Positions 736-48,660 of a stretch of 64,000 bases of DNA are shown one piece after another (positions within the stretch are counted from its first letter, which is position 1; each line of letters begins with the position of its first letter). The notes beneath the pieces were generated by a model. It was not told where the DNA came from. It saw nothing but the letters and a program-made list of their open reading frames with translations, and searched no databases. Source of the stretch: Patescibacteria group bacterium (GTDB taxonomy: Bacteria; Patescibacteriota; Minisyncoccia; Moranbacterales; UBA2206); assembly GCA_022709735.1 (NCBI GenBank), contig JAKLIG010000005.1, forward strand, positions 5,884 through 69,883. Reading direction: 5' to 3'. A program made the translations under genes and the position numbers.

Positions 736-3525
736 TCATAGGTATTTTCCAGTCCAGCTTCGTTTGCATTTTTTAAGCCCAACTGGAAATCCGGCATAAA
801 CTATTTCTCCACCTCCCCTTCCGCCTTCCGGCCCGAGATCAATTACCCAATCAGAATTTTTGACCACATCAGAATTATGCTCGACTACAATCACTGAATT
901 GCCTTTTTCTACGAGCGCATCCAAAACTTTCAAAAGTTTTTTGACATCTTCAAAATGAAGGCCAATTGTCGGCTCGTCTAAAATATACAAAGTTTTTCCG
1001 GTTGATTTTCGGGAAAGTTCCGCCGCTAATTTTATCCTCTGCGCTTCCCCGCCAGAAAGATTAGTTGCACTTTGCCCGAGTTTCAGATATCCCAATCCGA
1101 CTTCTTCCAGTGTTCGAAGTTTTTCCGCAATGAGCGGAGATTTTTTGAAAAATCTTAGCGCATAAGAAACGCTCATATCCAAAACTTGGGCAATGCTCAC
1201 CCCTTGATATTCAATATCCAAAGTTTTTTGATTATACCTGGTTCCTTGGCACGATTCGCACTTCACATACATATCCGGCAAAAGATGCATTTCAATTTTT
1301 TTTGTTCCATCTCCTTGGCACTGTTCGCATCGTCCACCTTTCATATTGAAACTAAATCGGCTGGCATCATAATTTCGATTTTTTGCTTCTTCGGTTGAAG
1401 CAAAAATTTCGCGAATAAGCGAAAAAACTCCGGTATAAGTGGCGGCGTTAGACCTAGGCGTCCGACCGATCGGACTTTGATCAACATTAATTACCTTGTC
1501 AATAAAATTCAAACCGGTTATTTTTTTATGTTTTCCGGGAATTTCTTTGGAACGAAAAAAATGCGCCGAAAGAGCTTTGGCTAAGACGTCAGAAATCAAA
1601 GTAGATTTTCCCGAGCCGGAAACACCCGTGATTGCCACAAATCTTCCCAGTGGAATTTCCACATCAATATTTTTCAAATTATGCTCGCTGGCAGAAATTA
1701 TTTTCAAATATTTTTGAGATTTTACGCGCGGTTTCTTTTTTTGAGAAATTTTTTCCCGACCGCTTAAAAAACAAGCGGTTTTAGTTTTGGAAGCTTTGAG
1801 CTTTTTCACATCTCCTTCAAAAATAATCCGGCCTCCTTCTTCACCGGCCCCCGGACCCATATCAATTATCCAATCCGCTTTTTCAATAATATCCTTGTCG
1901 TGCTCCACTACAATCAATGAATTTCCATTGTCTCTCAAAAATCGCATCGTTTGAATAAGTTTTTCCGTGTCCCGATTATGAAGACCGACTGACGGCTCGT
2001 CCAAAACATAAATTATTCCGGAAAGCTCCGAACTGATTTGCGTAGCGAGCCTGATTCTTTGCCCTTCTCCGCCAGAAATAGAATTGGCCCCGCGGAAAAG
2101 TTCCAAATATTCCAGACCGACATTTTTGAGCGCCTCCGCCTTCCCTTCCATTTCTTTGATGAGCGGGGCTGTTATTTCTTTTTTTGCTTCACTCATCGGT
2201 TCAACTGCCAAAGTTTTCAGAAAATTCAAAAAAGAATCTATGTCCAACTTCGCGATATCATCAATGGATTTTCCGGAAATCAAAACCGACAAATATTCTT
2301 TTTTCAATCTTTTGCCAAGACATTCCGAGCAAACCTTCTCCCGCATATATTTTTCAATTTCTTTTTTGAATGTGAAAGAAGATGATTCCTCATATTTATC
2401 CTTGATAAGAGAAACTACTCCCGGAAAAGAAATGCCCGCTTCTTCGTCTTTTAGTCCGTGAAAAATTATTTCTAAATTTTCCAGCGCTATTTTTTTTATC
2501 GGGTCATCCAAAGAAAAGCCTTTTTTTCTGCCTATTTTTTCCAAAACATCCAGATAATTTCCTTCGCTTCTTGTTCTTCCACCAAGTTTAGAAAGAGGCA
2601 ATACAGCGCCTTCCGAAAGAGACAGGTTTTTATTCGGAACGATGAGTTCCTCGTCTATTTCCTGAACAATTCCAAGCCCGGCGCAATGATCACAAGCACC
2701 TTCCGGACTGTTGAACGAAAAATGTTTGGGCGTAATTTCTGAAATTTTGAAAAAACAATTACTGCAGACAAAATCCCGATTATATATCCGGCTTTCTCCA
2801 TTGTCGATGCTCACCGCCATAAAACCTTTGCCGAGCTTGAATGCGGTTTCAATCGAATCCAAAATTCTTTCTTTGTCCGGATTTTTTTTCTTGAAAGTTA
2901 TTCGATCGACAACAATTTCCACATTGCCATTTAACAATTCTTCGGTGCTTGCCAGCGCTTCCGCGATAAGAATTGTCCGCCCGTTTATTTTTGCCCGCGC
3001 ATATCCTAATTGGCTGATATTTTTCAAAATTTCCCGAATATTTTTTCCATCCGGTCGAATTCTGGCCAGAATAGCTATTTGCGTATTATCCGGCGATTCT
3101 AAAATTTCGCCGATTATTTCCTGATTTTTTTTCCGCGCCATCGGCAATCGGCAATGCGGACAATATGGCAAGCCGGTTTTAGCAAACAAAATTCTAAGAT
3201 AATCATAAATTTCCGTCATTGTTCCAACTGTTGAACGAGGAGAACGGCTCAAACTTTTTTGATCAATCGAAATTGTCGGACTCAAATTTTCAATTTTGTC
3301 TGCATCGGGTTTGGCGGAAATTTCCAAAAATTGGCGAGCATAACTCGACAGAGATTCCAAATATCTTCGGTTGCCTTCCGCATTGATCACATCAAAAGCC
3401 AAGGTAGATTTTCCGCTCCCGGAAAGTCCGGTAATGACCACCAGTTTGTCGCGCGGAATTTCCACGCTTATATTTTTGAGATTATTCACTCTGGCGCCGG
3501 TAATTTTTATTTTGTCTTTTCTCAT
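736..3525 (-). CDS. uvrA: Excinuclease ABC subunit A (UvrA), full-length copy 1
   Basis: 940-aa ORF with two ABC ATPase modules (Walker [14 protein letters not shown] and [10 protein letters not shown]) and zinc-finger CxxC pairs. UvrA hallmarks [13 protein letters not shown] and LDEPSVGLH are present. The likely start is the internal [19 protein letters not shown] (3525) rather than 3558. Confidence 0.93.
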
Positions 3526-3632
3526 AAAAAATAAAATTGGAAAAATTAATTTAAACAAGCATTCTGGGTATTAATCTTACAGGAAATTTTTGAATTTGTC
3601 CACCCCCGCACTAAAATTGTTTTGCAAAGAAA

Positions 3633-3683: not shown

Positions 3684-3772
3684 AGATTTTTTTATATTCT
3701 ATACTTCACTTTTTCATTTTTCTTCGTGTCTCATGTTTCCTGCTTCATAATTCCTAATTCATAATTCATAAT

Positions 3773-6433
3773 TTACGGCGCCACTTCCTGCCAAGTACAG
3801 TCTTTTGTGCCAGTGCAAGTTATTGTTGGATTACATCCATCAGTATAATTTCCCACACAATGAGTTGCTCTGTCAGAATCAGAACATTCAGAATAGCCTG
3901 GATTTGGATTACAAGGCACTGAACTATCCGATGGCTTATCTCCTGAGCAACAAGCTTCTGGTGCCGTATTACCACCTGCCGTCAAACATATTGATGTTTG
4001 TGTTTGTGTTCCATTTGTACAAGTTCCAATACAACTACCATTTGGAATCCATCCCCAATTAGCACCTGCTGGACATATAGAAGCCTCACAAAAAGGAGAT
4101 TTTTTGCCTTCATACAATCCCAGACACTCCCATCGTGACGGACTCCCAACAGAAGGAAATGCAGGAAAAGGAGGGCCAACAGGGCTAATAGTTCCTTTGC
4201 TACAAAATGTATCCGTTCCAAAAACAGTTGCTGAAGCTGGATAAACTTTAGAAGCTGTTCCACATTCTCCATCCACTGGCGTAGCTGCTGCTTCTCTGGA
4301 AGCAGAACAATTCCCACTATCGATCCCGCCATAAATTCCAAAACACTTCCAGGTTACCGTTTGGCCCGGCTCGGGAAAACTCGGAGAATTAGCGCCAATA
4401 ATTCCCGACTGACAAAGTGAATAAGGGTTAAAGACGGTTGCCGAATAAGGATAAATCTTTCCGTTAGCACTGCCACAAGCACCATTTACCGGGGTACAAT
4501 TATCTCTTCTAGCTCTACAACTAGCAACGGCCCCTCCATACAAGCCTGAACAAGTCCAACTTAATGTTCTTCCATAAGTAGGAAAATTATTTTTATCTAT
4601 AAGATAATCATAGCTGGGGGTTGAACTTCCAACACTACAAAAAAAAGGACATATGCCAGGAAATTCAGTTTCGCCACAAGCATAAAATCTAGAAAGTGAA
4701 CTGCATTCTCCGGGAACTGGATGAATTGAAACCGAGTAATATGCATATGTATATATTGAATCGATTAATTCTTTGCTTGAATTATATACATTAGCCAAAA
4801 GATAAAAAGCATAATTTCCCACTGAAGATTGAGCAGTAAAATGAATCGGAGATGTGCCATTCCAAGACTTATTATTAACTTTCAAACTAACCATTGTTCC
4901 TCCAGGAAGAGATGTATTGCCTTTTATACTATAATGACCGTCTTCACTAGGAATATAATCAGCCTTATTTAAAACAAAACTGTAGCTGAATTGGATTCCG
5001 TTTTTATTATAATCCAGCCAATAAGTTGTGGCTTTTGCCTTGTTAATATTTACGAAAAAGAATGAAGAAAAAATAATACCTACCAGAAAAATCAGAAATT
5101 TTCCATTTCTTCTCTTTTTCAGAAGCCCAATATATATCATCACAACAAAAAATAGCGCAATAATTAAAATAATCAGAATAATTTTCGGCCAATTTTTATT
5201 AGCTATTTTATTTTTTTCTTTTTGGGGAGCAAGATTTTTAGCAGATTGGATACTTGGAGAAGAAACTGTCAAATTCTCACTAGCTAAAATATTTCCGCCC
5301 TCTCCCTTAATGGATAACTTAATTTGAGGATTGAGACATTCTGAAGTGATAGGAATTTCCAAATTTAAGCTGGAGTTAGCTGAATCAATTTTTTTAGATA
5401 CTAAGGCGGAACAATCGCTTTTTTCATTAGCGATCTTAAATTCTGCCAGAAAATTTTGAGAATTGGAAGACACTCCCGTCCAAAGCAAATTTATCTTGGC
5501 TATATCCCCTTTTTGATAGAAATCTTTATCCAATTTTATATTTTGAATAATCGCCATATCGCCTTTCAAAATATATCGGAAAATTATTTTATTGGAAAAA
5601 TCTTGTCCGTCTTTTTTGAGCGTTAAAATATCCAGATATTCCTGGGGAGTGTTAGCCTTGGGAATATTCATAGTAATATTTTTTTTCTCTCCCGAAGACA
5701 GTATTATAGGAAAATTTCCATCAATTTCTTGATCTGCCACCAAACCACCATAATCAATTTTTTGTGTTTCAAAAACCGGAATAAGCGTTATTTTTTCTTT
5801 TGCTTGATTTTGAACTGTGCAATTAAGCAACAGAGCGTCATCGTTTTCTAAAATAATATTTTGAATATTTTGCGACAATGAGAATTTTTCGGAAAATTTA
5901 CCTTCACCATTTTTTGTTTGCAAAAAACAGCTGACTGGATCAATAAAAACCATCGCCACAGATTGGCTTAATTTCAAATCTCCTACTTTTTCAAAAGCAT
6001 ATAACAATCCGGAAGGACTCTTAGCCTTGATCCAAAGCTGAAAATTCCCAGCTAAATTGCTTGGTGCGATATATTCAATTTCTTTAGTAATACTTTGCTT
6101 TGGCAAAAGAGTTATTGAATCAGAAAAAGCTTTAAAATCAATAATACTGTTGGTTTTATCTTTATTCTCTCTAGTAAGTTCGAAAGAATAATTTATTCCC
6201 GGCTGGACAACGCTGTCATCATTTGTGAGTTTGAAACTTGCCCGAAGGCTGTTTTTATTTTGAGAAATTACCTTAACATTACTAATATTCACATCTGCCA
6301 CAGGTATCGTTTCAGCTTCAGATGAAAAAGCAGTTTCTTCTGCCACTGGCAAAGTTTCCGCCGAGCAAACACTAAAAAATCCCGTCGAAAAAAGACCGAG
6401 CGTAGCAACAGTGAAAATAAATATTTTTTTCAT
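3773..6433 (-). CDS. Cys-rich surface protein paralog P1 (signal peptide, ectodomain, TM hairpin, Cys-repeat C-domain ending ...CTWQEVAP)
   Basis: 886 aa. N-terminal signal peptide MKKIFIFTVATLGLFSTGFFSVCSA. Central hydrophobic helix, KKRRNGK loop, second hydrophobic helix, then NINKAKA. C-terminal region holds three tandem ~45-aa Cys modules (CG.A.GK.YP.SATVF....C..G.......FP..G....W.C.G.YGG). The N-domain aligns with P3. Confidence 0.75.
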   Translation of the reverse strand: MKKIFIFTVATLGLFSTGFFSVCSAETLPVAEETAFSSEAETIPVADVNISNVKVISQNKNSLRASFKLTNDDSVVQPGINYSFELTRENKDKTNSIIDFKAFSDSITLLPKQSITKEIEYIAPSNLAGNFQLWIKAKSPSGLLYAFEKVGDLKLSQSVAMVFIDPVSCFLQTKNGEGKFSEKFSLSQNIQNIILENDDALLLNCTVQNQAKEKITLIPVFETQKIDYGGLVADQEIDGNFPIILSSGEKKNITMNIPKANTPQEYLDILTLKKDGQDFSNKIIFRYILKGDMAIIQNIKLDKDFYQKGDIAKINLLWTGVSSNSQNFLAEFKIANEKSDCSALVSKKIDSANSSLNLEIPITSECLNPQIKLSIKGEGGNILASENLTVSSPSIQSAKNLAPQKEKNKIANKNWPKIILIILIIALFFVVMIYIGLLKKRRNGKFLIFLVGIIFSSFFFVNINKAKATTYWLDYNKNGIQFSYSFVLNKADYIPSEDGHYSIKGNTSLPGGTMVSLKVNNKSWNGTSPIHFTAQSSVGNYAFYLLANVYNSSKELIDSIYTYAYYSVSIHPVPGECSSLSRFYACGETEFPGICPFFCSVGSSTPSYDYLIDKNNFPTYGRTLSWTCSGLYGGAVASCRARRDNCTPVNGACGSANGKIYPYSATVFNPYSLCQSGIIGANSPSFPEPGQTVTWKCFGIYGGIDSGNCSASREAAATPVDGECGTASKVYPASATVFGTDTFCSKGTISPVGPPFPAFPSVGSPSRWECLGLYEGKKSPFCEASICPAGANWGWIPNGSCIGTCTNGTQTQTSICLTAGGNTAPEACCSGDKPSDSSVPCNPNPGYSECSDSDRATHCVGNYTDGCNPTITCTGTKDCTWQEVAP

Positions 6434-6456
6434 TTTATTTTTATCTCCTTAAAAAA

Positions 6457-9024
6457 TTACGGCGCGACTTCCCGCCAATCACCAGAAGAATCAGAAAAAC
6501 CAGGATGGCCGGGAGAACAAGGACATGGAATTGAGCGACTACAATCGTTACATCGAGATTGTGGTAGTAAGGTGCCATTAGTGCTAACACACATATCCTG
6601 TACATCAACACCGCACTGACTTGGAGAACAAGTTGCCTTAATGCAACTAGGCAGTCCTTCAGGTGTTTCACCTTTATACCATTGGCATCCTATTATATTC
6701 GAACATTGACTGGAATTTTCTACCTCTGTCCAGGGAGTATCTTTTGTTAGCCCCGACTCGGTGTTGAGACATTTATTCTTGGGAAGCATAGGAGCTTCGC
6801 CCAAACATATAAAAGGAGCAACCGGTTCACGAACCACAATCATCCAAGAAACTGAGCATCCAGAAATAGGAGAAGCCGTCATGCTGTCCATTTTGTAAAA
6901 TCCGGCTTTATCGTTTTCACTCTTCTTTTCACCCTCTTCATACATCTGCCAAAAACCAGCCACAATTTTAGGTGTAACTGTCGGAAAATTAGCTGTTAAT
7001 ATTGCTATTCCGGGTTTCTTCGCAATACAATTTAATCCATTGCAAGATATCACGCTCGAATCGCTTGATTCAATGCTCCCGGCAACCGGCATCTTGTCAA
7101 AAACATTTAAATAGCCATAATGATCTTCCGTTTTTTCTTCTATTTCTTTTTGCAGTTTTTCAATTTGAGATCTTAAGGTCTCTATTCTTTTTTCTTGCTT
7201 TTGTTTGGCTGTCCCTGGCTCTTCTATTAGATTGTTTAATTCCTTTTCTAAATCAGATTGATATCTTTTTAGCAATTGTTCTTTATCTATGGAATAAAAT
7301 TTAAAATATTTATTTCCAGCGCTTCCGTCATCTATCGCCTTTTTTAGTATGGCTGACATTTCATCTGACGATTTATCCGTCCATTCTCCATACGGCGTAT
7401 CCCACGCTCCTCCGGATGCGTTGTAAGAAAGAAGTTCCGGAAGATAAGAAAAATTTATTGGATTGTTTATTTCAACAATATAATTTCCCGCTGTCATTTC
7501 CATATTGTGCGTCATATTGAAATCGAAATTAAATTTTGCGTCAGATCCAAAAAGTTCGAAAGCAATTGATTCTCCATTGTTTTCCGAACAAGTTTTTCCG
7601 TTATATCCTCCCAGCGCTTTATTCGGATTTGCAATCAGCATTCCAGAACTGATAAGCAAGAAAATGATAACGCTTCTAATTCCCATCCTTTTATTTCTAA
7701 AGAAAATAATAAGAATAACGGAAATTATAATCAAAAGAATTGTTACAAGCATTATTTTCACGCGCTTGGCCGTTTTTTGGTCTTCCATCATTTTGGAAAT
7801 TGTCGAAACAAAACATTTGTCTTTGTTGATTTTGTTACAATCGTAAACTGTTTCATATTCATCAACCATTTCATTCTTATCATTATTCATCGCGGCCCTT
7901 AGTTTTATATAATCATAATTTTTTTTCGCTGTAATATCTTTTTTGCCGGCCATCATTGCGCTGGTAATATTACCTTGATATTCCAACTTATCAATCAAGT
8001 TATCGTTTTTGTCATAAAGGCTTAGTGTAATTTTATTACTGGGCGAAACAACATCAGCCGTATTGTGGAAACAGGAAAAAAGAGTGAACTCATCATTTTC
8101 TTTCACAGGAAATTTGGTAATGGCCGGATAATTGAGTCTTGAGTGAATTTGCTTGCTCGAAAGACGGATGTTCACTATGGATTTTTCATTTTCCGAAATA
8201 GCTGTGATTTTTAGAAAATAGACGGAATCATTCATCTCATCAATGGCATAAGATAAGTTTTTTGATTCACCGGCTGGAATGGTAATTTCTTCTGTTTTAG
8301 ATGTAATCTTGTCTTTTTCATCCAGACTGTCCCAAAAATATAGATCATAAATAACCACCGCTTCCTTATCTTTTTCGTAAGTATTGTTAATCGGCTGAAT
8401 TATTTCCGCTTTTTGACCGGCTTTGATTTCCGGCCAGTTGCCGATATGCCTATATTTTTCGCCATTGACTTGAGTTTTTGATCTGTCAAAAAAAATAGAG
8501 GAATTATTATCAGAATTTATTTTGAAATTAGCCAGACCAGCTACAATTTCATTAGTGAAGGGCAATCCGCCGAGATTGAATTTTTTTCCAACAGAAAAAA
8601 AGAAATCCGCTCGGTATTCCCCGGCTTTGACATTTTCAGGAGCTGTCCAATTAAATTCCACCGCTTTGGTTTCTTTGGCATCAAGGCTAATGTCTTTTAC
8701 GGCAATGAGCTCGTCAATATTAAATTGGCCTTCTTTGGCATAATTTGGATTTTTTTCTGAAATCCTGACAAAAACATTGCCATCCACTACCGGATAATCA
8801 TTCTTGTTGGTAATCTCACCTTTGAATGTCACGGTTTCGCCGGAATTATATTCTCCTTTCTCTGTTCCCAAACTTACCTGAACGCTTTGGAATTTATAAT
8901 AATCAAAACAATCAACGCTGGAAGAATTTGTATCGATTTCTCCTTCTGCGCGAGCGTTCAAAGCCAAAACCGTTAGACCTAAAATTGTTAGCGCCAGGCT
9001 AATTAGAATTTTTTCTTTTCTCAT
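6457..9024 (-). CDS. Cys-rich surface protein paralog P2 (same architecture, different ectodomains, coiled-coil segment, ends ...GDWREVAP)
   Basis: 855 aa with a signal peptide, a central helix / RNKRMGIRS loop / helix, a Cys-rich C-terminal ~120 aa, and the same extreme C-terminal tail. Confidence 0.7.
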   Translation of the reverse strand: MRKEKILISLALTILGLTVLALNARAEGEIDTNSSSVDCFDYYKFQSVQVSLGTEKGEYNSGETVTFKGEITNKNDYPVVDGNVFVRISEKNPNYAKEGQFNIDELIAVKDISLDAKETKAVEFNWTAPENVKAGEYRADFFFSVGKKFNLGGLPFTNEIVAGLANFKINSDNNSSIFFDRSKTQVNGEKYRHIGNWPEIKAGQKAEIIQPINNTYEKDKEAVVIYDLYFWDSLDEKDKITSKTEEITIPAGESKNLSYAIDEMNDSVYFLKITAISENEKSIVNIRLSSKQIHSRLNYPAITKFPVKENDEFTLFSCFHNTADVVSPSNKITLSLYDKNDNLIDKLEYQGNITSAMMAGKKDITAKKNYDYIKLRAAMNNDKNEMVDEYETVYDCNKINKDKCFVSTISKMMEDQKTAKRVKIMLVTILLIIISVILIIFFRNKRMGIRSVIIFLLISSGMLIANPNKALGGYNGKTCSENNGESIAFELFGSDAKFNFDFNMTHNMEMTAGNYIVEINNPINFSYLPELLSYNASGGAWDTPYGEWTDKSSDEMSAILKKAIDDGSAGNKYFKFYSIDKEQLLKRYQSDLEKELNNLIEEPGTAKQKQEKRIETLRSQIEKLQKEIEEKTEDHYGYLNVFDKMPVAGSIESSDSSVISCNGLNCIAKKPGIAILTANFPTVTPKIVAGFWQMYEEGEKKSENDKAGFYKMDSMTASPISGCSVSWMIVVREPVAPFICLGEAPMLPKNKCLNTESGLTKDTPWTEVENSSQCSNIIGCQWYKGETPEGLPSCIKATCSPSQCGVDVQDMCVSTNGTLLPQSRCNDCSRSIPCPCSPGHPGFSDSSGDWREVAP

Positions 9025-9109
9025 TTTATTTATTTATATTTTTTATATTTTACTTTTTCATTTTGCTCCACGTCTCATACTTCCTAATTCATAATTCATA
9101 CTTCAGCAT

Positions 9110-11464
9110 TTACGGTGCCACTTCCTGCCAAGTGCAGTCTTTAGTGCCAGGTCCGCAATTATCATGTGATGGACATTTACTAATATAATCTTGACCTATG
9201 CAAGTATTAGCCCTACCGACAGGGCAACTATCGTTACAACAACTTTTAGTTCCTCCTGTGCATGATCCACAATTATTGCTAGACATCCATGTCTCTGTTG
9301 TGCAATGAGCAGAGGGATCGCCACAAACCGGAGTGCATGAACTAGCAGAAATAAATTCAGCTATTAAGGTTTTATTAGAGCTATTAACATGAATGTTGCA
9401 AACGAAATAATCTCCCGTAACACTTGTGCACAAATCGCTATCCCATCCGGCAAAAGTTGATCCGCTGTCAGGAGTAGCAGTTAATTCAACTGAAGTTGGA
9501 ACAGCAGAGCTAATATTTGCAGAACTTGTAGTACAAGTTGATCCGCAATTAATTATATCTTCATATTTATAATTTCTCCATTGCTTTCCGGATACTGTTC
9601 CCGTTCCACTGCCACTTTTATTTATGGTTAGCTTATAATAAGGAACTACATCATAACCCAAATAACCGCTATCATCATAGCATTCTTTTCTCTCATAGAT
9701 ATTATCATATACACATACATGCAACTTGACCTCTATTTCATAATGACCTTTTTTTGTCGGTGCTGAAAATCTATAAATCCCAGTGCTATGATTCATATCA
9801 GCAACTTTACGGTTGTCAATATATAGTTCAGCATCTGACAATGAAGTCCCTGTTGGCAAAGAATATGTCCCACCTGCATAAATTCGACCATAAACCTTGA
9901 TTTCTTCTCCCGGTTCATATTCAAATAAATCAACATCCGCATTTCCAAAAACGCCTATACAGGAAGGAAGGGAGGACATTATTGTTACATAATCCCCTGC
10001 TTTTGCGCTTTCCGTTTTAGCAAAAAATAAAGCTGGAGCTACAAAAAGAAAAACAAAAATAGTGAAAAATCCATTTCTGCCATTTTTTATCTTACGCCTA
10101 ATAACCCAAAGTAAAATTACCAGCCCTACCAAAATAATAATCAGCATGATAACTGATAATATTGTCCCAGTTGTTTCTGTTTTTTCCACTTGACTGTCTT
10201 CTTTTTTGTTTTCAATATCATTGGTATTTTCAATATTATTTTTTCTTTCCTGCGAAGTGAAAGATATTTTTTGATCAGTTATAACATCTCCTTTTTCATT
10301 TTTAATTATTATTTTAGCCTCAAATTCTTGGCAATCCCGGATTATGGGGATTTCCAAACTGGTCAAATTATTTTTGGAACTTAATTCTTTTTGAATAAGT
10401 TCGGAGCAAGGCTGATTTTTTTCGCCTATTATTTGCAAGGCTAGATAGGTCTTATTTTCTGGAATTTTTAGACTTATCTTGCGAGAATTATCATAGCTTG
10501 AAGAATTGGTTAAATAAGATCGAATGAAAGAAGCCTGAGCGATTTCTCCCTTTTTATAATTATCCTTGTCTAATTTAAAATTATTTATTGAAGCCCCTTG
10601 GCCGATTAAGGCATAATAAAATATTATTTTATTGGAAAAATCATTGCCCTCTTTTTGAAGAGTAAGCGCAGTTCCATAAATATGAGATAATTCAGCTTTC
10701 GGAACAATCAGGCTAACTTGTTTTTTTTCTCCGGCTGCCAAAGTTATCGGCAAATTGGAATTATTTTCTTGCTCGGAAGGTGAACCGGCATATCCATTTT
10801 CAAAAGTTTCAAACTTGGGATTTAGTGATATCTCTTGATTGAAATTATTCTTAATCAAACAATTCAAAATAAGATTTTCTTCGGCTTTCAAAACAACATT
10901 TTCATTGAGTGCATATTTTTTTCTCACATCATTATCTTCCTTTATCTGCAAATAACATTTGGAAGAATCGAGATAAGCCGATCGACTTGAATTTTTCAAA
11001 TTTAAATCACTTATCTTTTTAAAAGAAAAGGGCAAACCAAAGGAATTCCCAGCCTTAAGCCAAAGTTGATATTTTCCTTCCAAATAATCGGGAATATCAT
11101 ATTCGATTTGTCTAGATACGCTCTGATTGGGAGAAAGTGTTACAGCTTCCGGAAACATTTCATAATCAATAATTATTTGTTCTCCTTTTTTATTTTCTTG
11201 AACCAATTCAAAATAATATTTGGTTTCTGGCTGGACAAATTTGTCCTTATTCGTTAAATCAAAATTGATTTTCAACTTGTCCTCATCTTGAGAAACTATT
11301 TTAACATTTTGAAAAATCATCTTGGCTACCGTCGCATATGTTAGACTTTCGGGTTGTTCGCTAGCAGTTATAGCTTGAACATTGGCACCAAAAGAAAAAA
11401 TAGCCGAACTCACAAGTGTCAGTAATAACAAAACTAATAATATTTTTTTATTTTTTTTCTCCAT
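9110..11464 (-). CDS. Cys-rich surface protein paralog P3 (N-domain homologous to P1; C-domain has an InlB-B-repeat-like module; ends ...CTWQEVAP)
   Basis: Likely start MEKKNKKILLV at 11464. Signal peptide, central helix / RRKIKNGRNG loop / helix. Contains a module (INKSGSGTGTVSG...CGSTC...VELTATPDSGSTFAGWDSDLC...CNIHVNSSNKTLIAEF) resembling divergent InlB B-repeats. Shares the C-terminal tail and about 60 nt of 3' flank with P1. Confidence 0.72.
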   Translation of the reverse strand: MEKKNKKILLVLLLLTLVSSAIFSFGANVQAITASEQPESLTYATVAKMIFQNVKIVSQDEDKLKINFDLTNKDKFVQPETKYYFELVQENKKGEQIIIDYEMFPEAVTLSPNQSVSRQIEYDIPDYLEGKYQLWLKAGNSFGLPFSFKKISDLNLKNSSRSAYLDSSKCYLQIKEDNDVRKKYALNENVVLKAEENLILNCLIKNNFNQEISLNPKFETFENGYAGSPSEQENNSNLPITLAAGEKKQVSLIVPKAELSHIYGTALTLQKEGNDFSNKIIFYYALIGQGASINNFKLDKDNYKKGEIAQASFIRSYLTNSSSYDNSRKISLKIPENKTYLALQIIGEKNQPCSELIQKELSSKNNLTSLEIPIIRDCQEFEAKIIIKNEKGDVITDQKISFTSQERKNNIENTNDIENKKEDSQVEKTETTGTILSVIMLIIILVGLVILLWVIRRKIKNGRNGFFTIFVFLFVAPALFFAKTESAKAGDYVTIMSSLPSCIGVFGNADVDLFEYEPGEEIKVYGRIYAGGTYSLPTGTSLSDAELYIDNRKVADMNHSTGIYRFSAPTKKGHYEIEVKLHVCVYDNIYERKECYDDSGYLGYDVVPYYKLTINKSGSGTGTVSGKQWRNYKYEDIINCGSTCTTSSANISSAVPTSVELTATPDSGSTFAGWDSDLCTSVTGDYFVCNIHVNSSNKTLIAEFISASSCTPVCGDPSAHCTTETWMSSNNCGSCTGGTKSCCNDSCPVGRANTCIGQDYISKCPSHDNCGPGTKDCTWQEVAP

Positions 11465-11478
11465 TTCTAATTTTATCA

Positions 11479-12789
11479 TTAATTGCTAACGCTGTTTCTA
11501 AGCACAATGCAAGGAGCTTCAACATTCCCGTTTGTTTTTTTGCACTTCCAACTAACCCATCCGCCTTGAGATGGAAAATTTGGTTCATTTCCAACGAGAG
11601 TGGCGCTAGAAGAACAAAATTCATGCGAGCTGAAATCAGCAGACACGGAAGAATATGTTCCGGTTGTTCCGCTTCTTGATGATCCAAGCGCCGGACCACA
11701 TAAATTGACTGTCGCTTCCGGAAGTTTATTTTTAACCGTAGTGCCTGCTGTGTTTGAATTTGTCACTGAAGATTCCCTATCAACCACTCTGATAACTATA
11801 CTCACTGGCACAGACAAATTATTATTATTGTCCTTGACTTTTAAGTTTATCGTATGCTCGCCAGCTTTAGTAAATTTTGCTTTGGTGCTATATTTATTAC
11901 TTCCCTGACCCAATGGAAGACCGGTTTCATCCGTCCAATAATACCCAGAAATCATTCCGTCATCAGTCCCTTTTCCTTGAAAAACAACAAAATCACCAGC
12001 ATTGACAATTGTTCCATTCGCTGGAGAAAGAATTTTTGCAGTAGGGATAGCATTTGTTGCATTGGAAGAACCGGAAGAATCATTGGAGCCCCCAGAAACA
12101 GTGAAACGGACTGTCTTGCTTTTTATCGGCCTCATTTCTCCTACCCATCCGTCTCCACATTGAAAAGTGCAAGAAAAATTTCCCGCTGAAGTTGGTGTAT
12201 ATATCTTATCTTCAGAATTACCATTGCAACCATGAAGCGGAACAGTGTGCACTGATCCTTCGGGTCTCCTAGAATCATAGTAAGGGCAACCGGGTTTATT
12301 CTCAAATCCGCAATAATCGTTTCCTTTGATTGTTGTATGCCAATTCCAAGTAAATGTAATATTTTCTCCAAGTTTAATATTAGAAGATGAAGCGCTAAAA
12401 TCAAGCGTATCCAATGCAATTCCATAAGAATCAACACCTGACTTACCAGATGTGCATTCCCCGACTTTCGTCGGATTTACGTTATTGACTGGGCGTTCAA
12501 ACAGCCCGGTAGCGCTCCAGTCACAGGCTTTAGCCGTACATTCTGTCGAACCTTTTTTAGGAGTTTTGCATATTGCATTAACTTCTCCTCCAACATAATA
12601 GCCGTCAGACAATACGCTATTACCAGAAATTTGTCGGCAAGTGTTGCAACTTTCAATGCATCTCTCACCTGCGCCGCAAGTTACTTCAGCAAAAACAGAA
12701 GAAGAAAAAGTAAATAAGCCTAGAGCTACTAAAACGAAGAAAATTCCTAAGCTCACATATATCCTGCTAATTTTTTTTATAATTTTCAT
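11479..12789 (-). CDS. Secreted Cys-rich protein P4 (436 aa) carrying the same Cys module at its C-terminus
   Basis: Signal peptide/TM MKIIKKISRIYVSLGIFFVLVALGLFTFSSSVFA. The C-terminal FPSQGGWVSWKCKKTNGNVEAPC matches the P1 repeat unit. Confidence 0.65.
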   Translation of the reverse strand: MKIIKKISRIYVSLGIFFVLVALGLFTFSSSVFAEVTCGAGERCIESCNTCRQISGNSVLSDGYYVGGEVNAICKTPKKGSTECTAKACDWSATGLFERPVNNVNPTKVGECTSGKSGVDSYGIALDTLDFSASSSNIKLGENITFTWNWHTTIKGNDYCGFENKPGCPYYDSRRPEGSVHTVPLHGCNGNSEDKIYTPTSAGNFSCTFQCGDGWVGEMRPIKSKTVRFTVSGGSNDSSGSSNATNAIPTAKILSPANGTIVNAGDFVVFQGKGTDDGMISGYYWTDETGLPLGQGSNKYSTKAKFTKAGEHTINLKVKDNNNNLSVPVSIVIRVVDRESSVTNSNTAGTTVKNKLPEATVNLCGPALGSSRSGTTGTYSSVSADFSSHEFCSSSATLVGNEPNFPSQGGWVSWKCKKTNGNVEAPCIVLRNSVSN

Positions 12790-13335: not shown

Positions 13336-14739
13336 CTATTTTTTGTCCACAGCTCGCCTAAATTCTTTGTTTCTTAGTTTTCGATGATACCCAATCGCAA
13401 AACGATGCGCTTTATCGCGGATTTGCTGAATTAAATTCAAGGAAATTTCGGGAACTGATCCGAATTTTCGAATATCCAATTTTTTCCGGCTCGGTCCCTT
13501 GGCCACCGCCATAATCGGAATTTCTAGTTTATAATTTCGAAGGATTTTCCGCGCCATATTCAAATGTCCCGCTCCGCCATCAAGAAGAATTAGATTTGGA
13601 AGTGTCCAGCTGTTTTGAAATCTCCTAATTAGTATTTCCCTCATCGCTCCGACATCATTGGCACCGGAAATAGTTTTTATCTTGAATTTTCGATATTCAT
13701 TTTTGTTAGGACCCATTTCACCTAAAGAATTATCAAATACCACCATTGATCCGACATTATGACTTCCGGAAATATTGGAAATATCATAACCCTCGATTCG
13801 CATCTGTTTCGTAGGGAACAAAAATTTTTGTCCCCTGCTGTCTGAAATTAACGCCACATCTCGAATATGTTGCAACGCAAAAATTTTATTTCTTATATCC
13901 AGCGCTTTTTCAAATTCTTCCTTTTTTGAGAATTCGTTCATTTCTTTTTTTAGCGTATTTATCAGATTTTTTTTCTTCCCTTCTAAAATCATTCGAATTC
14001 CCCTGATATTTTTCTGATAATCAAATGCCGAAATAGCGCCATCATACGGCCCAGGGCAAAGTCCAATTTGATAATCCAAACAGCCTTTTTCCGAATTTTC
14101 TTTTTTATTGTGATAGGGAAAAATTTTTCGAAGAATTTTGAGCGCAATTTCAATTTGTTTTTTGGAAGTATACGGCCCATAAATAGCTTTTAGCTTATAG
14201 CTTATAGCTTTTAGGCTTTCACTATTTTTTAGAAATTGGTAATTGGAAATTGGTAATTTATTGAAAATTGGAAATTGTCCGCCGGAGGCGGATCCGCCTT
14301 TGGCGGAAAAATTGAAAATTTTATCAAGTTCCCTGCCTCGCGCAATTAAAATCCTTGGAAATTCATCTTTCGTAATCACAACATAAACAAATGATTTGTC
14401 ATCTTTCCCATCAATATTGTATTTGGGCTGGAGTTTTTTAATTAAATTTTGCTCTAAAATATAGGCTTCTAGAACCGTATCGGTTTTTCTGATTTCAACA
14501 TTTGACACCTCATGAATCATAATTTCAATCGGCCGACCGCTAAAATATGTAGGGGTTTGATTTATCAAACCCTTTTCTGTTTTGGGTTCAATAAATTGAA
14601 CCCCTACAAAATATGAAGAAACCCTATCCTTCAAACTCGTCGCTTTCCCCACATACAAAACATCCCCGGTTTTATTTTTGAAGATATAAACTCCGGGAGA
14701 ATTGGGAAATTTAGCAATTTTACTCTTTAGGCTTGACAT
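13336..14739 (-). CDS. uvrC: Excinuclease ABC subunit C (UvrC), short form lacking the C-terminal (HhH)2 domain, with an in-frame low-complexity insertion
   Basis: N-terminal GIY-YIG (GVYIFKN...VLYVGKA). UVR-like segment and RNase-H-like endonuclease region (RIEGYDISN ... RDKAHRFAIGYHRK). The ORF ends soon after, at 467 aa versus roughly 600 typical. Confidence 0.8.
   Translation of the reverse strand: MSSLKSKIAKFPNSPGVYIFKNKTGDVLYVGKATSLKDRVSSYFVGVQFIEPKTEKGLINQTPTYFSGRPIEIMIHEVSNVEIRKTDTVLEAYILEQNLIKKLQPKYNIDGKDDKSFVYVVITKDEFPRILIARGRELDKIFNFSAKGGSASGGQFPIFNKLPISNYQFLKNSESLKAISYKLKAIYGPYTSKKQIEIALKILRKIFPYHNKKENSEKGCLDYQIGLCPGPYDGAISAFDYQKNIRGIRMILEGKKKNLINTLKKEMNEFSKKEEFEKALDIRNKIFALQHIRDVALISDSRGQKFLFPTKQMRIEGYDISNISGSHNVGSMVVFDNSLGEMGPNKNEYRKFKIKTISGANDVGAMREILIRRFQNSWTLPNLILLDGGAGHLNMARKILRNYKLEIPIMAVAKGPSRKKLDIRKFGSVPEISLNLIQQIRDKAHRFAIGYHRKLRNKEFRRAVDKK
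14186..14320. repeat. Mosaic simple-repeat insertion inside the uvrC coding sequence (AGCTTTT/AGCTTAT heptamers + GAAATTGG repeats + GC-rich palindromes CCGCCGGAGGCGG / CCGCCTTTGGCGG)
   Basis: The same heptamer satellite occurs at 59661-59720 and 30624-30653, and GAAAATTG-type repeats occur at 640-735. Here they are translated in frame (…GGSASGGQFPIFNKLPISNYQFLKNSESLKAISYKLKAI…). Confidence 0.6.
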
Positions 14740-15455: not shown

Positions 15456-18347
15456 TTATTTTCTATCCAGAATTTCCCTCAAATACTTCCCCGTCCAACT
15501 TTTTTTATAATATTTCGCCACTTCTTCCGGCGTGCCGGAAACAATTAATTTTCCTCCCTTATCCCCGCCTTCCGGCCCGAGATCAATTATCCAATCAGCA
15601 GTTTTGATGACATCCATATTATGTTCAATGACCACGACCGTGTTTCCCGCGTCCACCAAACGATTCAAAACTTTCAATAATTTTTTTATATCGTCAAAAT
15701 GCAGTCCGGTCGTTGGTTCGTCTAAAATATAAAGTGTATCGCCAGTCGCGCGCCGAGAAAGTTCGGTCGCTAATTTTATTCTTTGCGCTTCTCCGCCGGA
15801 AAGCGTTGTCGCACTTTGACCAAGCTGGATATATCCAAGTCCAACATCTTCGAGCACTGCCAACTTATCATGAATTTCTGGAAAATTTTCAAAAAATTCC
15901 CGCGCATCACTCACCGTCATTTCCAAAACTTCCGCAATATTTTTTTCTTTATATTTCACTTTCAAAGTTTCACTGTTATATCTTTTTCCGCCACAAACAT
16001 CGCACGGCAGATACACATCCGGCATAAATTGCATTTCGATTTTGAGATATCCGTCTCCCTGGCAATTATCACATCTTCCCCCAGAAATGTTAAACGAAAA
16101 TCTTCCGGGAGAATATCCTTTAGTCTTGGCATCTTTCGTCATCGAAAAAAGTTCGCGAATTGGAGAAAAAAGTCCGGTATAAGTGGCCGGATTGGAACGC
16201 GGGGTGCGCCCAATCGGACTTTGGTCAATCATAATAACTTTGTTGATATAATGCGCTCCGGCAATTTCATTATGACGCCCCGGTCGATCTAATGAACGCA
16301 TAATATTTCTTGCCAGAGATTTATAAAGTATTTCTTCTACTAGAGTTGATTTTCCGCTTCCGCTTACTCCGGTCACGCAAGTCAAAGCTTTCAGAGGAAA
16401 TTCCACCGTAATATTTTTTAGATTATTTTCCCGCGCTCCGCGAACAATGATTGATTTTTTGTTTTTCATACTCCGCCTGAAGCTCGGAATTTCAATTTTC
16501 AGTTCTTTTCGAAGATATTTGGCCGTTAATGATTTTTTATTTCTCAAAACTTCTTCTGGCAAACCTTGTGCCACAATTTCTCCGCCGTGACGCCCCGCGC
16601 CCGGACCGATATCGACTAAATAATCCGCTGCTAACATGGTTTCTTCATCATGCTCGACAACTATAAGCGTATTTCCAGTATCCCGAAGCTTAATTAATGT
16701 TTCTAAAAGTTTAGCGTTATCCCGCGCATGCAGACCAACTGATGGTTCGTCTAAAATATACAAAACTCCAACTAACTGCGATCCGATTTGTGAAGCCAAG
16801 CGAATTCTTTGCGCTTCTCCGCCAGCCAAAGTGCTGGCACTTCGACCCAGCGTCAAATATCCCAATCCGACATTTTCCAAAAAACTCAAGCGGTTTTGAA
16901 TTTCTTTTAAAATTCTTCCAGAGATCAATTCTTCTTTTTTATTTAATTTTAATTCTCGAAAAAATTCCAGAGATTCAAAAATACTAACATCAGAAATTTG
17001 AGATATATTTTTTCCGCCGACACTTACTAACAAAGTTTCTTTTTTATATCTAGAACCATTGCACATTGAACAAGGATTTTGCGACATATATTTTTCAATG
17101 TCAGTTCGGACCGCATCCGATTGCGTTTTTCGATATCGATCTTGCATATATCCCACCGCTCCTCGCCAGCTCATATTATATTTCCAAACCGCTCCAGTCT
17201 TACTCTTAAGTGTCACTGGGATTTGTTCGGCCTCATCTTCCAAAATCATATCTTTTGCTTCCGGCGCGCCAAATAGCAGTATATTAAAATCATCTTCGGA
17301 TAAATCACGCAGGCGGACATTGTCAGAAATATGGAAATGTTTGCAAACTGCGCGAAGAATTGTCCCTTGCCAATTATTTTTTTTATAACTCCACGGCATA
17401 ATTCCCCCTTCGGAAATAGTTTTATTTTTGTCTGGCGCCACAAGCGCTGGATCAATTTCTTTTTTTGTTCCAAGCCCTTCGCAAGCCGGACACGCGCCAT
17501 ACGGACTGTTGAAGGAAAATAACCGCGGTTCAAGTTCGGGAAATTCCACTTCATGAATCGGACAAGAAAGATTTTGGTTAAATATAATTTCTTTATTATT
17601 TTCTTTTTTTGATTTTAAGATTTGGGATTTAACTTTCACAAGCCCTCCTGAAAGTTTCAACGCTTTTTCCACTCCCTCAAAAATCCTAGAAATATTTTTA
17701 TCATTAATTTCCACTTCATCAATCAAAATATCAATGCTATGTTTTTTATATCTCTCAAGTTTTATTTCACTTTTTATTTTTAAATTCAGTTCAATTTTTT
17801 TTCCGTTAACATACGCCCAGGAAAATCCGCGCTGAAACATTTCAGCCATCATTGTCGAATATTCTCCTTTTCTTTGGCGGACAATCGGAGAAAGAATTTC
17901 TATTTTGCATTCTCCGCACATCTCAAGAATCCTATCCACAATTTCATCAGTGGAAAGTTTGGTAATTTCCCGATTACAAACAGGACAATGAGGAATTCCA
18001 ATTTTGGCATAAAGCAAGCGAAGATAATCTTGGATTTCTGTGACCGTCCCGACAGTTGATCGTGGATTGTGCGAAGCCGCTTTTTGATCGATAGAAATTG
18101 CCGGTGAAAGTCCTTCGATATAATCCACATCTGGCTTGTCTATTTGCCCCAAAAATTGCCGGGCATATGAAGACAAACTTTCTAAATACCGCCTTTGCCC
18201 TTCGGCAAAAATGGTATCAAAAGCCAGCGTGCTCTTTCCTGAGCCGCTGATTCCGGTGAAAACTATAAACTTGTTTCGAGGCAATTCAAGATTAATATTC
18301 TTAAGATTGTGCTCCCGCGCGCCTCGAATTATTAATTTATCATGCAT
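15456..18347 (-). CDS. uvrA: Excinuclease ABC subunit A paralog (second full-length UvrA, 963 aa)
   Basis: [18 protein letters not shown]..., Walker [14 protein letters not shown] and [23 protein letters not shown], Zn-finger cysteines. Clearly distinct in sequence from copy 1. Confidence 0.9.
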
Positions 18348-18509: not shown

Positions 18510-18887
18510 TTATTTTTTATTCTTGGAGCTATTTATTATAGATGAAAAAATCCAAACAAATTTTTGAGCTTCTTTATACAATTTTCTACAATTTTCCCTT
18601 CTATCAGAATTAGCTTTAGCTATCATCCTGAACCAATGCATACTTTCCTTTGACTCTTTTCGGCAAATTCCAATTTTATTTTCAAAATCTTTTTTGGAAA
18701 CTGCGCCATCAGCTTCCATGTAATTTGCTCCTATGCTCGTTCCAGATCGCACAATCTGATTTACAAGTGGCTTATTAATTTCATTATGCGGTAAAGAACT
18801 AACAAATTCAATTACATCTTCCCCGAATTTAGCAGTCCTTTCGATTAAATCATAATTACTTTTTTTACTTGGGATTTTATTTGTCAT
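18510..18887 (-). CDS. Four-helix-bundle protein (formerly '23S rRNA intervening-sequence protein' family)
   Basis: Diagnostic motifs SGTSIGANYMEADGAVSKKDF and CRKESKESMHWFRMI. The 125-aa length fits the family. Confidence 0.8.
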   Translation of the reverse strand: MTNKIPSKKSNYDLIERTAKFGEDVIEFVSSLPHNEINKPLVNQIVRSGTSIGANYMEADGAVSKKDFENKIGICRKESKESMHWFRMIAKANSDRRENCRKLYKEAQKFVWIFSSIINSSKNKK

Positions 18888-18910: not shown

Positions 18911-19579
18911 CTATAAACTAATATATTTTACCGGCAGAACTTTCTTGAAAATTCCGGCAATCAAAACTGAATCAGAAGAGTGGATAAAAATCGGCTGATG
19001 AATCGTGTTGGAAGACCGCGGGAAAAGTCCGATGATTTCCTCACTTACTTTTTTATATCTCTTGATCGTCGCCATACCATTTATCACTGCCACGACAATT
19101 TTCCCTTCCAACTCTTCACTTTTACCATAATCATATTTTTCAAAAATAACATAATCGCCGTCATTGATGCCGTCTTTGTCCATCGAATCGCCCAAAGTTT
19201 TGACTGCGAAAAGTTTAGCGCTGTCTGCTCCACGAAAAAGCGCTTTGGAAATTTGCAAAAATCCGTCCACATTATCTTCGGCATAAGCCAGCGCTTCTCC
19301 GCAAGAAGCCAGGCCATAAACCGGAATGGAAAAAATATTTTTGAAATTAGCAAAGCTTTCATTTTCTACCAAATATATTTTTCTATCTTTGTCTCTTTTG
19401 ATCAGATCTTTTTTCTCCAGCGCTTCAATCACCTGCATCACAGATTTCAAACTATCTTTCACGCCTTGCGATTCCAAATATTTGTGCAATTTATAACTGG
19501 TCGGATTTTCTCCGCGCTGTTCGATCAGCTCGCGGATGTTTTCCAAAATACTTTGTTGCTTAGCTGTAAGTGTTGGCAT
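18911..19579 (-). CDS. lexA: LexA-family repressor (winged-HTH + S24 peptidase)
   Basis: C-terminal S24 Ser/Lys dyad context (AVKTLGDSM ... ATIKRYKK). The N-terminal winged-HTH region is judged from general similarity, not a specific motif. It lies adjacent to the uvr genes. Confidence 0.8.
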   Translation of the reverse strand: MPTLTAKQQSILENIRELIEQRGENPTSYKLHKYLESQGVKDSLKSVMQVIEALEKKDLIKRDKDRKIYLVENESFANFKNIFSIPVYGLASCGEALAYAEDNVDGFLQISKALFRGADSAKLFAVKTLGDSMDKDGINDGDYVIFEKYDYGKSEELEGKIVVAVINGMATIKRYKKVSEEIIGLFPRSSNTIHQPIFIHSSDSVLIAGIFKKVLPVKYISL

Positions 19580-19856: not shown

Positions 19857-19917
19857 TCTTACTTCTTAATTCTTAATTCTTAATTCTTAATTCTTAATTC
19901 TTAATTCTTAATTCTTA
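19857..19917. repeat. Heptanucleotide microsatellite (CTTAATT)x8 overlapping the stop codon of the upstream gene
   Basis: Eight perfect tandem 7-bp units; the TAA stop of 19915..20946 lies inside the array. Confidence 0.9.
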
Positions 19918-48428: not shown

Positions 48429-48624
48429 TTTTTAAATAAGCTTTTATTTCTTTTGCATTATCTTTATCCATTTTTTCAATTGCAAATCCGGCATGTACCA
48501 TTACATAGTCGCCAATTTTTGCCGAAATTAGACTAATATTTATTTCTTTTTTCATGCCTTGAAAATCAACTATTGCCAGTTGATTTTTGATTTTTATTAT
48601 TTTTCCAGGAATTGCCAAACACAT
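48418..48624 (-). CDS. hypC: Hydrogenase assembly chaperone HypC
   Basis: Starts MCLAIPGKII. The ORF-track N-terminal extension (MQGCSILFLL...) is encoded by repeat element D1. Confidence 0.8.
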   Translation of the reverse strand: MCLAIPGKIIKIKNQLAIVDFQGMKKEINISLISAKIGDYVMVHAGFAIEKMDKDNAKEIKAYLKNEV

Positions 48625-48660
48625 GCCAATTTTGTCTGCGAACATAGTGAGCAGGAACAA

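Follow-up and report, generated by a model that had tools for sequence, protein, structure and literature searches.

Predicted bipartite surface-protein precursors with an internal signal peptide and a C-terminal tail in a patescibacterial gene array

Polyproteins that carry an internal signal peptide are known mainly from enveloped viruses. In bunyavirus-type precursors, signal peptidase makes the cut, and the signal peptide remains attached to the upstream product, in which it forms a second membrane helix. A bacterial polyprotein of comparable logic is FbcH of Bradyrhizobium japonicum, the cytochrome b-c1 precursor, whose second part is exported and released via an internal signal sequence and which thereby provides a precedent for the processing of such joints by bacterial signal peptidase. 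The Patescibacteria, or Candidate Phyla Radiation (CPR), comprise a large share of bacterial diversity and are attached to other cells, and to our knowledge almost nothing is known about how their surfaces are constructed. Here, we analyze an array of four minus-strand genes, termed P4, P3, P2, and P1 in the order of transcription, in a 64-kb stretch of patescibacterial DNA (contig JAKLIG010000005.1; the whole stretch is called the window below). The products of P1, P2, and P3 share a build that can be compared with these precursors and, in addition, end with the same short C-terminal tail.

Bipartite build, family, and gene forms

Taking sequence, family, and structural information together, we consider it rather probable that P1, P2, and P3 belong to a large patescibacterial family, as yet uncharacterised, of bipartite precursors of surface proteins, in which an internal signal peptide is combined with an autonomous tail tag. 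In the mechanism proposed, the N-terminal signal peptide would export a beta-sandwich ectodomain of about 360 aa, a first transmembrane segment (TM1) would stop transfer, and a short basic loop would remain cytoplasmic. A second hydrophobic segment (TM2) would then act as a second, internal signal peptide through which the C-part is exported, and signal peptidase I would cut after a conserved A-x-A site. The N-fragment would stay anchored through the TM1-loop-TM2 hairpin, whereas the freed C-fragment, starting at T469 in P1, at about G473 in P2, and at G495 in P3, would open with a conserved beta module, followed by a Cys-rich payload that varies and by the tail. The two fragments may associate after the cut. 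The fused gene would thus replace two adjacent genes, for an anchor and a secreted partner, which is the arrangement of other genomes.

The order of parts is the same in the three proteins, namely, signal peptide, beta-rich ectodomain (here, the N-domain), TM1, basic loop, TM2 with its A-x-A site, Cys-rich C-part, and W(Q/R)EVAP. An earlier sequence-only reading of this DNA had described four minus-strand genes for exported, Cys-rich proteins in tandem, three of them with a hydrophobic helix, a basic loop, and a second helix followed by an AxA-like site. The open reading frames (ORFs) were recovered at the lengths given in Table 1, the hairpin was confirmed by direct reading, and the description as exported, Cys-rich, and tandem is supported. 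Cysteines are concentrated in the C-parts, with 27, 16, and 19 in P1, P2, and P3, respectively, against 5, 4, and 4 in the N-parts.

By our own heuristic rules, rather than SignalP, TM2 of P1 and P3 has the features of a Sec signal peptide cleaved by signal peptidase I (a basic n-region, an h-region of about 12 to 18 residues, a helix breaker near -6, small residues at -3/-1, and no Pro at +1). In P1, the hydrophobic segment spans residues 446 to 463, with h-region FLIFLVGIIFSSFFFV, and the predicted cut falls between A468 and T469 (NINKAKA/TT, the slash marking the cut). In P3, the loop RRKIKNGRNG is followed by FFTIFVFLFVAPALFFA and then by KTESAKA/G, and the AlphaFold2 model places helices at 437 to 463 and 471 to 486 and a beta module at 498 to 590. 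Among 128 family hairpins, position -1 is occupied by Ala in 121 and position -3 by Ala or Val in 105; at -6/-7, Pro or Gly is frequent, and positions +1 to +3 read D-T-F, though the scoring left those positions out. In the same hairpins, the loop measures 10 aa at the median and carries a net charge that averages +3.5. As the site is conserved, with Ala at -1 in 121/128, cleavage after TM2 is likely and would leave the N-fragment anchored and set the C-fragment free. Residue 447 of P2 (window 7675-7677) is a Met that opens its internal signal peptide (FFRNKR-M-GIRSVIIFLL...), with no Met at the matching position of P1 or P3; it could be the relic start codon of a once-separate gene or an internal start.

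P1 and P3, whose N-domains had been described as alignable, align with 33% identity across 550 aa (E = 1e-87). P2 carries another type, which matches the P1/P3 N-domain profile only marginally (hhalign probability 49%), and P4 matches P1 over 62 aa only (BLASTP, E = 2e-4); the claim of four paralogous proteins thus does not hold, and the array consists of three hairpin proteins and a module-sharing neighbour, P4, that has no hairpin, N-domain, or tail. The P2-type N-domain also occurs with a hairpin elsewhere, in metagenome loci L047 and L072; residues 4 to 464 of P2 share 47% identity (E = 2e-139) with the L047 protein, which has the hairpin and ends GGNWKEVAP. For neither N-domain type was a Pfam, NCBIfam, or Protein Data Bank (PDB) sequence relative found, and a Pfam scan of six N-domain sequences (alignment A2) gave nothing consistent. 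AlphaFold2 models residues 50 to 408 of P3 as a confident all-beta array (pLDDT > 90), and Foldseek on the P3 model returns generic MG/Ig-like beta-sandwich arrays only.

A profile of the N-domain, built without the hairpin, was searched against 1.84 billion representative sequences and matched 1,901 clusters at 50% identity with E <= 1e-3, 1,029 of them with E <= 1e-30. In a genome scan using one genome per species, all 36 loci returned lie in Patescibacteria metagenome-assembled genomes (MAGs), labeled Moranii-, Campbell-, Parcu-, Pacei-, Nomura-, Gribaldo-, and Portnoybacteria. The family had been taken for a lineage-specific one; with at least 1,901 clusters and with sampled loci that are all patescibacterial and carry several candidate-phylum labels, it is not. 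The hairpin build is present in 7/7 first homologues, four of which (P0002 to P0005) have N-domain and hairpin in common and differ in their C-parts, in about 30 of the 45 members from the 36 genome loci, L001, and the window, and, as TM1, basic loop, and TM2, in 123/152 inspected sequences (the best 150 of the 1,901-cluster family plus the earlier homologues). Tandem copies are frequent, with three in L001 and two each in L006, L008, L009, and L026. Two homologues extend the build into chains: P0009 joins two anchor domains in one ORF (anchor-joint-anchor), and P0015, whose payload has about 1,000 aa and the ending GRIIETRP, reads anchor-joint-anchor-joint-payload. The joint can therefore be seen as a reusable in-frame connector.

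A short form that ends directly after TM1 and a basic tail was found in 25/152 inspected sequences and in nine locus members, and at the nine loci the next gene starts 0 to 40 nt downstream or overlaps the anchor gene. All nine partner genes open with signal-peptide-like n-, h-, and c-regions and an A-x-A site, for example, MNLKNFKILLFVVAFLILLPAGSAKA/DSF... in L031, ...MPQHAQA/DTF... in L020, and ...PHAAKA/DTF... in L029. A hidden Markov model (HMM) of the 120 residues that follow TM2 in 121 fused proteins matches six of these partners at or near their N-termini (L031, 7e-27; L020, 8e-24; L022, 8e-17; L029, 1e-10; L027, 5e-8; L018, 9e-7), and the fused and split states are therefore homologous. 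As the partner genes carry a predicted signal peptide and then, in six cases, the post-TM2 module, TM2 may be understood as a signal peptide taken over when two genes fused in frame, and the two states would be interconverted by a small indel where the genes meet. The possibility that the fusion arose as an artefact of assembly or frameshifting was rejected, because the joint is common to the three paralogues of the window and to 123/152 family sequences.

The main competitor is an uncleaved helical hairpin, in which TM1 and TM2 stay joined, two ectodomains are displayed, and the fusion serves to tether the payload. This topology fits the positive-inside rule, the preponderance of fused over split forms (123 versus 25) is sensible if tethering is the advantage, and roughly one in two fused forms lacks a tail by which a released fragment might be held. 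Set against this, the residues at -1 and -3, the helix breaker at -6/-7, and the conserved D-T-F of the mature N-terminus would be hard to keep without selection for signal peptidase, and what corresponds to TM2 in the split genes looks like a normal signal peptide at the N-terminus. We regard the uncleaved hairpin as rather unlikely. Both topologies had been proposed from the sequence, and comparative evidence (split genes, and the A-x-A site in 128 relatives) favours the fused precursor, with the simple hairpin standing as its rival.

The C-terminal tail and its carriers

The tail with its stop codon, TGGCRGGAAGTNGCNCCGTAA, has three exact matches in the window, all at the 3' ends of P1 to P3, against 0.01 expected, which bears out the earlier observation of W(Q/R)EVAP directly before the stop; a scan of all window frames yielded no further W.E[VIL].P. 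Conservation extends well beyond this genome, and the first refuting condition named with the earlier reading, a tail not kept in further family members, therefore does not apply. Among 124 long family forms, W-x-E-V-x-P, followed by zero to four residues, ends 29; relaxed tails (FEEVSL, YQEVAP, WKEITP...) end eight, a Phi-x-E-x class (PIFKER, FNEF, IIKEI, WQEK...) ends 23, F.V.C.. without the tail ends 22, and 42 end otherwise. The strict pattern was found internally at none of the 124,300 positions of these long forms.

A scan of a metagenome collection with the tail only (DNA encoding N-W-K-E-V-A-P-TAA) returned 51 loci. By our own reading, about 42 matches are the ends of long secreted-type ORFs, six lie in very short ORFs, at least four of which resemble truncated ends of real carriers, and three fall in cytoplasmic-type proteins, which is about the chance level that we estimated, without a tool, for a pattern of 18 fixed and three two-fold positions. 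In none of the tail-bearing ORFs at the 51 loci was the P1/P3 N-domain found. They comprise at least four unrelated secreted protein types, namely, a Cys-free family with ...PAEFFEYAPDQILLFP..L..RKINWKEVAP (the EYAPDQ type), C.G.R.CD[YFT]NWKEVAP proteins, TSP1-like WSNCSVACGGGTQTRSC... proteins, and LPWGG-repeat and GVGWIS-repeat proteins. Where the N-terminus is complete and the length at least 300 aa, 12/13 carriers start with a signal peptide or TM segment (own reading). W[KRN]EVAP is kept in 20/20 complete homologues of the EYAPDQ type at 48 to 74% identity, and tail-related endings occur in 18/164 signal-peptide proteins versus 6/337 others. The tail is therefore not, as first supposed, a property of the hairpin family, since unrelated secreted proteins without a hairpin end in it as well; it is a C-terminal motif that is autonomous and specific to this position in the secretome of the CPR.

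Several loci place tail proteins next to membrane proteins. Standalone tail proteins stand beside family genes (L011_4899, L035_5336, L001_19806, and L015_2923), and short anchor-like genes directly follow tail genes in L072, L076, and L077. In L069 (8041-13383), two EYAPDQ-type proteins end IQWKELAP and LNWKEVAP, and a 296-aa protein whose N-terminus holds a TM segment precedes each of them, which constitutes a second sort of membrane protein and tail protein pair. Type IV pilus operons with many GFTLIELL prepilin-type genes lie 1.5 to 6 kb from EYAPDQ-type tail genes, on the opposite strand, in L046 (488-6694), L087 (907-10859), and L088 (159-1050). The L087 operon is preceded by three large ORFs, putative pilus ATPase and platform genes, and one pilin-like protein near tail carriers ends ...QCVTWEP. 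A link between these pili and the tail was dropped, given the opposite strand, the distance, the unrelated genes between them, and a window devoid of the pilin motif.

Searches with the tail returned little that is known. No Pfam or NCBIfam model matches the motif, and carriers of the unrelated types gave nothing above curated cutoffs in NCBIfam (four proteins) or Pfam (five). A word-indexed protein search with an alignment of five tail-bearing C-terminal regions was uninformative, with one match from only 35 candidates. Searches of the literature available to us on the motif, on CPR sorting signals, and on bacterial internal signal peptides found no description of the family or the tail, and what matched the motif strings was the name of a parameter in hydrology.

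The tail is most likely a retention, docking, or sorting tag read by some surface component. It could instead be no more than the structural terminus of a disulfide-rich last domain, passed on together with it and signaling nothing. The Trp stands 1 to 6 residues after a Cys in P1, P3, L035, L011, and many others, and the preceding 40 to 60 aa are Cys-rich, partly alignable, and TSP1-like (W..C...CG.G..Q....C); this likeness is one of motif only, as the Pfam TSP_1 model matches neither P1 to P3 nor L075, whose end reads WSNCSVACGGGTQTRSC. However, the same six residues end Cys-free last domains (...EYAPDQILLFP..L..RKINWKEVAP) as well as other unrelated last domains, and the motif is never internal although the Cys modules repeat internally. 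AlphaFold2 also leaves the tail outside the domain fold; in the P3 model, the final 80 residues, tail included, have pLDDT < 50 and the Cys-rich end is unfolded. A purely structural end is, on this evidence, decidedly unlikely.

It is also conceivable that the 3' end acts on translation or RNA, through a termination pause at the Pro-stop junction, a pause at rare codons, or a small RNA hairpin. Pro as the final residue is a poor termination context in Escherichia coli. Rare G-ending codons are enriched in the tail across lineages in a genome of 36% GC: among 57 tails, Val is GTG in 31/57 (54%, versus 15% background), Ala is GCG in 20/50 (40% versus 18%), Pro is CCG in 33/57 (58% versus 25%), and the stop is TAA in 52/57. 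The P2 tail codons furthermore score as a 5-bp terminator-like hairpin with a T run. Conservation nevertheless lies at the amino-acid level, with sequence variation at the x positions and at the K/R/Q position. Variants exist with one to four residues after the Pro (PN, PNI, PR, PTGN) or with no Pro (the ...FKEI and ...FNEF class), and the motif sits on secreted-type proteins save for about three apparent chance matches. By our own reading, the possible stem in P1 and P3 has only 3 to 4 bp; with a 5-bp stem in P2 only, an RNA hairpin was rejected as a general explanation. Action on translation or RNA is accordingly given a very low probability.

Hardly credible, finally, is a divergent form of the WxL system of Enterococcus and Lactobacillus, in which a DUF916-type anchor of the WxL-interacting protein (WxLIP) kind holds Trp-tailed secreted proteins: the logic is similar, with an anchored beta-rich protein beside secreted partners with a Trp-containing C-terminus, and the P2 N-domain has a weak WxLIP_PGBD match (E = 1.6e-4, 22.2 bits), yet this falls short of the 27.3 that Pfam requires and does not recur in P1, P3, or the family profile, none of P1 to P4 matches a WxL domain (Pfam, E up to 1), and the tag here has six residues, whereas a WxL domain has about 150 aa and two W-x-L motifs.

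Some observations count against the bipartite precursor with a tail tag. The signal-peptide calls were made by heuristics and not by SignalP, and the uncleaved four-segment topology is equally legal. The tail is dispensable for the architecture, given the 22 F.V.C.. and 42 other endings among the 124 long forms, and only 3 to 4 of about 19 long tail-selected loci contain an anchor-type gene. The low pLDDT of the P3 tail gives no structural hint of docking on the N-domain, and the excess of G-ending codons is not explained by a purely peptide-level signal.

A wider, tentative proposal, which we consider possible but less probable than the bipartite precursor itself, is that W-x-E-V-x-P-COOH and its relative Phi-x-E-Phi-COOH form a new prokaryotic sorting signal of 4 to 7 residues, free of a TM segment and distributed across Patescibacteria. 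Such a signal might hand Sec-exported proteins to a surface receptor or enzyme, possibly the TM-anchored beta-sandwich anchors, and the window genes might then be anchor-cargo polyproteins split by signal peptidase. If true, each ORF in more than 1,900 hypothetical-protein clusters would stand for two or more products, which would change how CPR secretomes and proteomes are annotated and searched. It would also define a set of surface proteins by a common tag, searchable by pattern and usable as bait for the receptor, and provide a bacterial counterpart, widespread in a phylum, of the mainly viral internal-signal-peptide polyproteins.

C-parts, array, and neighbouring genes

The module directly after the TM2 cut is the most conserved portion of the C-fragment, and our best guess is that it contacts the anchor domain. 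Further downstream, the C-parts diverge. A Cys module of about 60 aa, with four Cys, an invariant Trp, and the pattern C..C..W.C..GG..C, occurs three times in P1, where the first copy is degenerate, once in P4 (residues ~364 to 430), and in 14 of the collected family proteins. The module is thus real and in the copy numbers first described, with a length of about 60 rather than 45 aa and a degenerate first P1 copy as the corrections. Structure prediction of the middle P1 copy (residues 648 to 716, window 4286-4492) gave a confident AlphaFold2 model (pLDDT 90.8, four strands), and comparison with the PDB gave no significant match (best E = 0.5). The InlB-B-repeat-like module that had been noticed in P3 was recovered above the Pfam cutoff (Table 1). 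P4 carries a PKD/Big_7 domain at about residues 249 to 327 (Pfam PKD, 31.8 bits, cutoff 23.5; Big_7, 31.7 bits, cutoff 24.1). Besides these P3 and P4 domains, nothing in P1 to P4 exceeds the cutoffs in Pfam and NCBIfam. Residues ~547 to 640 of P2 (window 7130-7390) are rich in Lys and Glu (...LEKELNNLIEEPGTAKQKQEKRIETLRSQIEKLQKEIEEKTE...), with several weak Pfam matches of coiled-coil type and without counterpart in P1 and P3.

The four genes lie head to tail, from P4 to P1, with intergenic gaps of -1, 85, and 23 nt. Because of these short gaps and a strong terminator-like hairpin after P1 (13-bp outer stem followed by a U run; minimum free energy, -17.5 kcal/mol; z = -4.2; equally stable shuffles, 0/200), P4 to P1 seem to form one transcription unit. 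An NCBI hypothetical protein from a Candidatus Moranbacteria MAG has the same sequence as P1 (100% identity). The final 42 aa of P1 and P3 share 52% identity, and the common 3' flank noted earlier is confirmed, with an extent of 128 nt, last codons included, instead of about 60 nt.

Table 1. Positions of the array genes and associated features in the window
Feature	Window position	Strand	Description
P1	3773..6433	-	886 aa; ORF; N-domain HMM match, E = 2.9e-151
P2	6457..9024	-	855 aa; ORF; build as P1, other N-domain type, ends WREVAP
P3	9110..11479	-	789 aa; ORF; build as P1, ends WQEVAP; N-domain HMM match, E = 1.3e-156
P4	11479..12789	-	436 aa; ORF; secreted Cys-rich protein without hairpin and tail
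P1 N-domain	5234..6322	-	Residues 38-400; all-beta conserved ectodomain; hmmsearch match
P1 TM1	5120..5182	-	Residues 418-438; predicted stop-transfer anchor; hydropathy scan and direct reading
P1 basic loop	5099..5119	-	Residues 439-445, KKRRNGK; predicted cytoplasmic; direct reading
P1 TM2	5030..5098	-	Residues 446-468; predicted internal signal peptide; c-region NINKAKA
P2 hairpin	7609..7755	-	TM1 424-442; loop RNKRMGIRS; TM2 and c-region 452-472 (...NPNKALG/G)
P3 hairpin	9998..10162	-	TM1 440-460; loop RRKIKNGRNG 461-470; predicted internal signal peptide 471-494 (...TESAKA/GD)
P1 four-Cys modules (three)	4088..4705	-	Residues 577-639, 653-709, 724-782; regex and alignment
P3 InlB B-repeat-like module	9350..9499	-	Residues 661-710; Pfam Flg_new_2, E = 3.1e-6, 27.5 bits, cutoff 23.6
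P1 tail and stop	3773..3793	-	W-Q-E-V-A-P, TAA
P2 tail and stop	6457..6477	-	W-R-E-V-A-P, TAA
P3 tail and stop	9110..9130	-	W-Q-E-V-A-P, TAA
Terminator-like hairpin 3' of P1	3628..3682	-	
Direct repeat, copy 1	3686..3813		128 nt; last codons and 3' flank of P1; 77% identity to copy 2
Direct repeat, copy 2	9023..9150		128 nt; last codons and 3' flank of P3
Thiol oxidoreductase-like gene	19915..20946	-	Membrane-associated; GILT/thioredoxin-type Pfam match, GILT E = 8.8e-7

A DsbA-like gene had been placed 8 kb from the array; a thiol oxidoreductase-like gene is indeed present, although of GILT/thioredoxin type and about 7 kb from P4. In L001, a DSBA/thioredoxin gene likewise lies about 5 kb from family genes. 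The window gene probably serves exported Cys-rich proteins in general.

Other genes near the array relate to DNA repair, as read from their translations, with UvrA-like genes at 736..3558 and 15456..18347 and a UvrC-like gene at 13336..14739. A 23S-rRNA-intervening-sequence protein is encoded at 18510..18887 and a LexA-type repressor (Pfam Peptidase_S24 and LexA_DNA_bind) at 18911..19579. Further away, window 42509-44245 encodes a 578-aa protein with an N-terminal signal peptide that ends in a run of about 14 Gly and then Trp (...GGSGGGGGGGGGGGW), and three consecutive minus-strand genes at 46391-48678 resemble hypE, hypD, and hypC of hydrogenase maturation, by the motif MCLAIPGKI... only.

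Comparison with described systems

Several described systems share single aspects with the array, though for each of those tested a defining feature is missing. Short C-terminal motifs on otherwise unrelated exported proteins of one lineage are also the hallmark of sortase (LPXTG), exosortase, archaeosortase, and rhombosortase signals. In the part of their descriptions available to us, these signals consist of a motif, a TM helix, and a basic tail, whereas the tail here forms the very last residues. No LPXTG-like motif was found near TM1 of P1 to P3, where the TM-plus-basic segment lies mid-protein and 300 to 420 residues follow; the sole LPXTG hint is the NCBIfam model EF0750_LPXTG in P3, at 19.5 bits against a cutoff of 47. 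Searches of P1 to P3 for PEP-CTERM, GlyGly-CTERM, MYXO-CTERM, and PGF-CTERM signals gave no NCBIfam match, and nothing hydrophobic follows the motif. The C-terminal domain of the type IX secretion system (Por_Secre_tail, a beta-sandwich of about 80 aa) has no Pfam or NCBIfam match either, and the last 80 residues are Cys-rich and not confidently folded.

The anchor part can be set beside other beta-rich surface proteins. In the WxL/WxLIP system of Firmicutes, secreted partners are held non-covalently by an anchored beta-rich protein through their Trp-containing C-terminus, and the six N-domain sequences of alignment A2 contain no WxLIP match. Foldseek aligns the P3 model with MG/Ig-like arrays such as alpha-2-macroglobulin/C3 and the Haloferax S-layer glycoprotein (7ptp) at E of about 1e-8, and the latter resembles the family in being a membrane-anchored string of Ig-like domains. 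With TM-scores of 0.1 to 0.2, however, the similarity is a generic one at the level of domains, without a sequence relationship. Neither do the window proteins show the C[GL]EQ motif of alpha-2-macroglobulin and complement thioester proteins, and their MG2 matches are below threshold.

The arrangement of ectodomain, TM anchor, short cytosolic segment, internal signal peptide, and second ectodomain is that of the bunyavirus Gn/Gc precursors and also of flavivirus and alphavirus precursors. For SFTSV, the virus of severe fever with thrombocytopenia syndrome, the available part of one report describes Gn/Gc processing as dependent on the internal signal peptide of Gc (PMC5113920). These precursors differ in being eukaryotic viral proteins processed in the endoplasmic reticulum, with no sequence or fold relation to the window proteins, and, unlike in the viruses, the joint in the window links bacterial genes that also exist unfused. 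FbcH is bacterial but remains a single case from a respiratory complex, without a large surface family of variable payloads and without a C-terminal tag. On balance, the viral Gn/Gc-type precursors and FbcH are the closest to the array in its proposed mechanism, and short C-terminal sorting signals the closest in logic.

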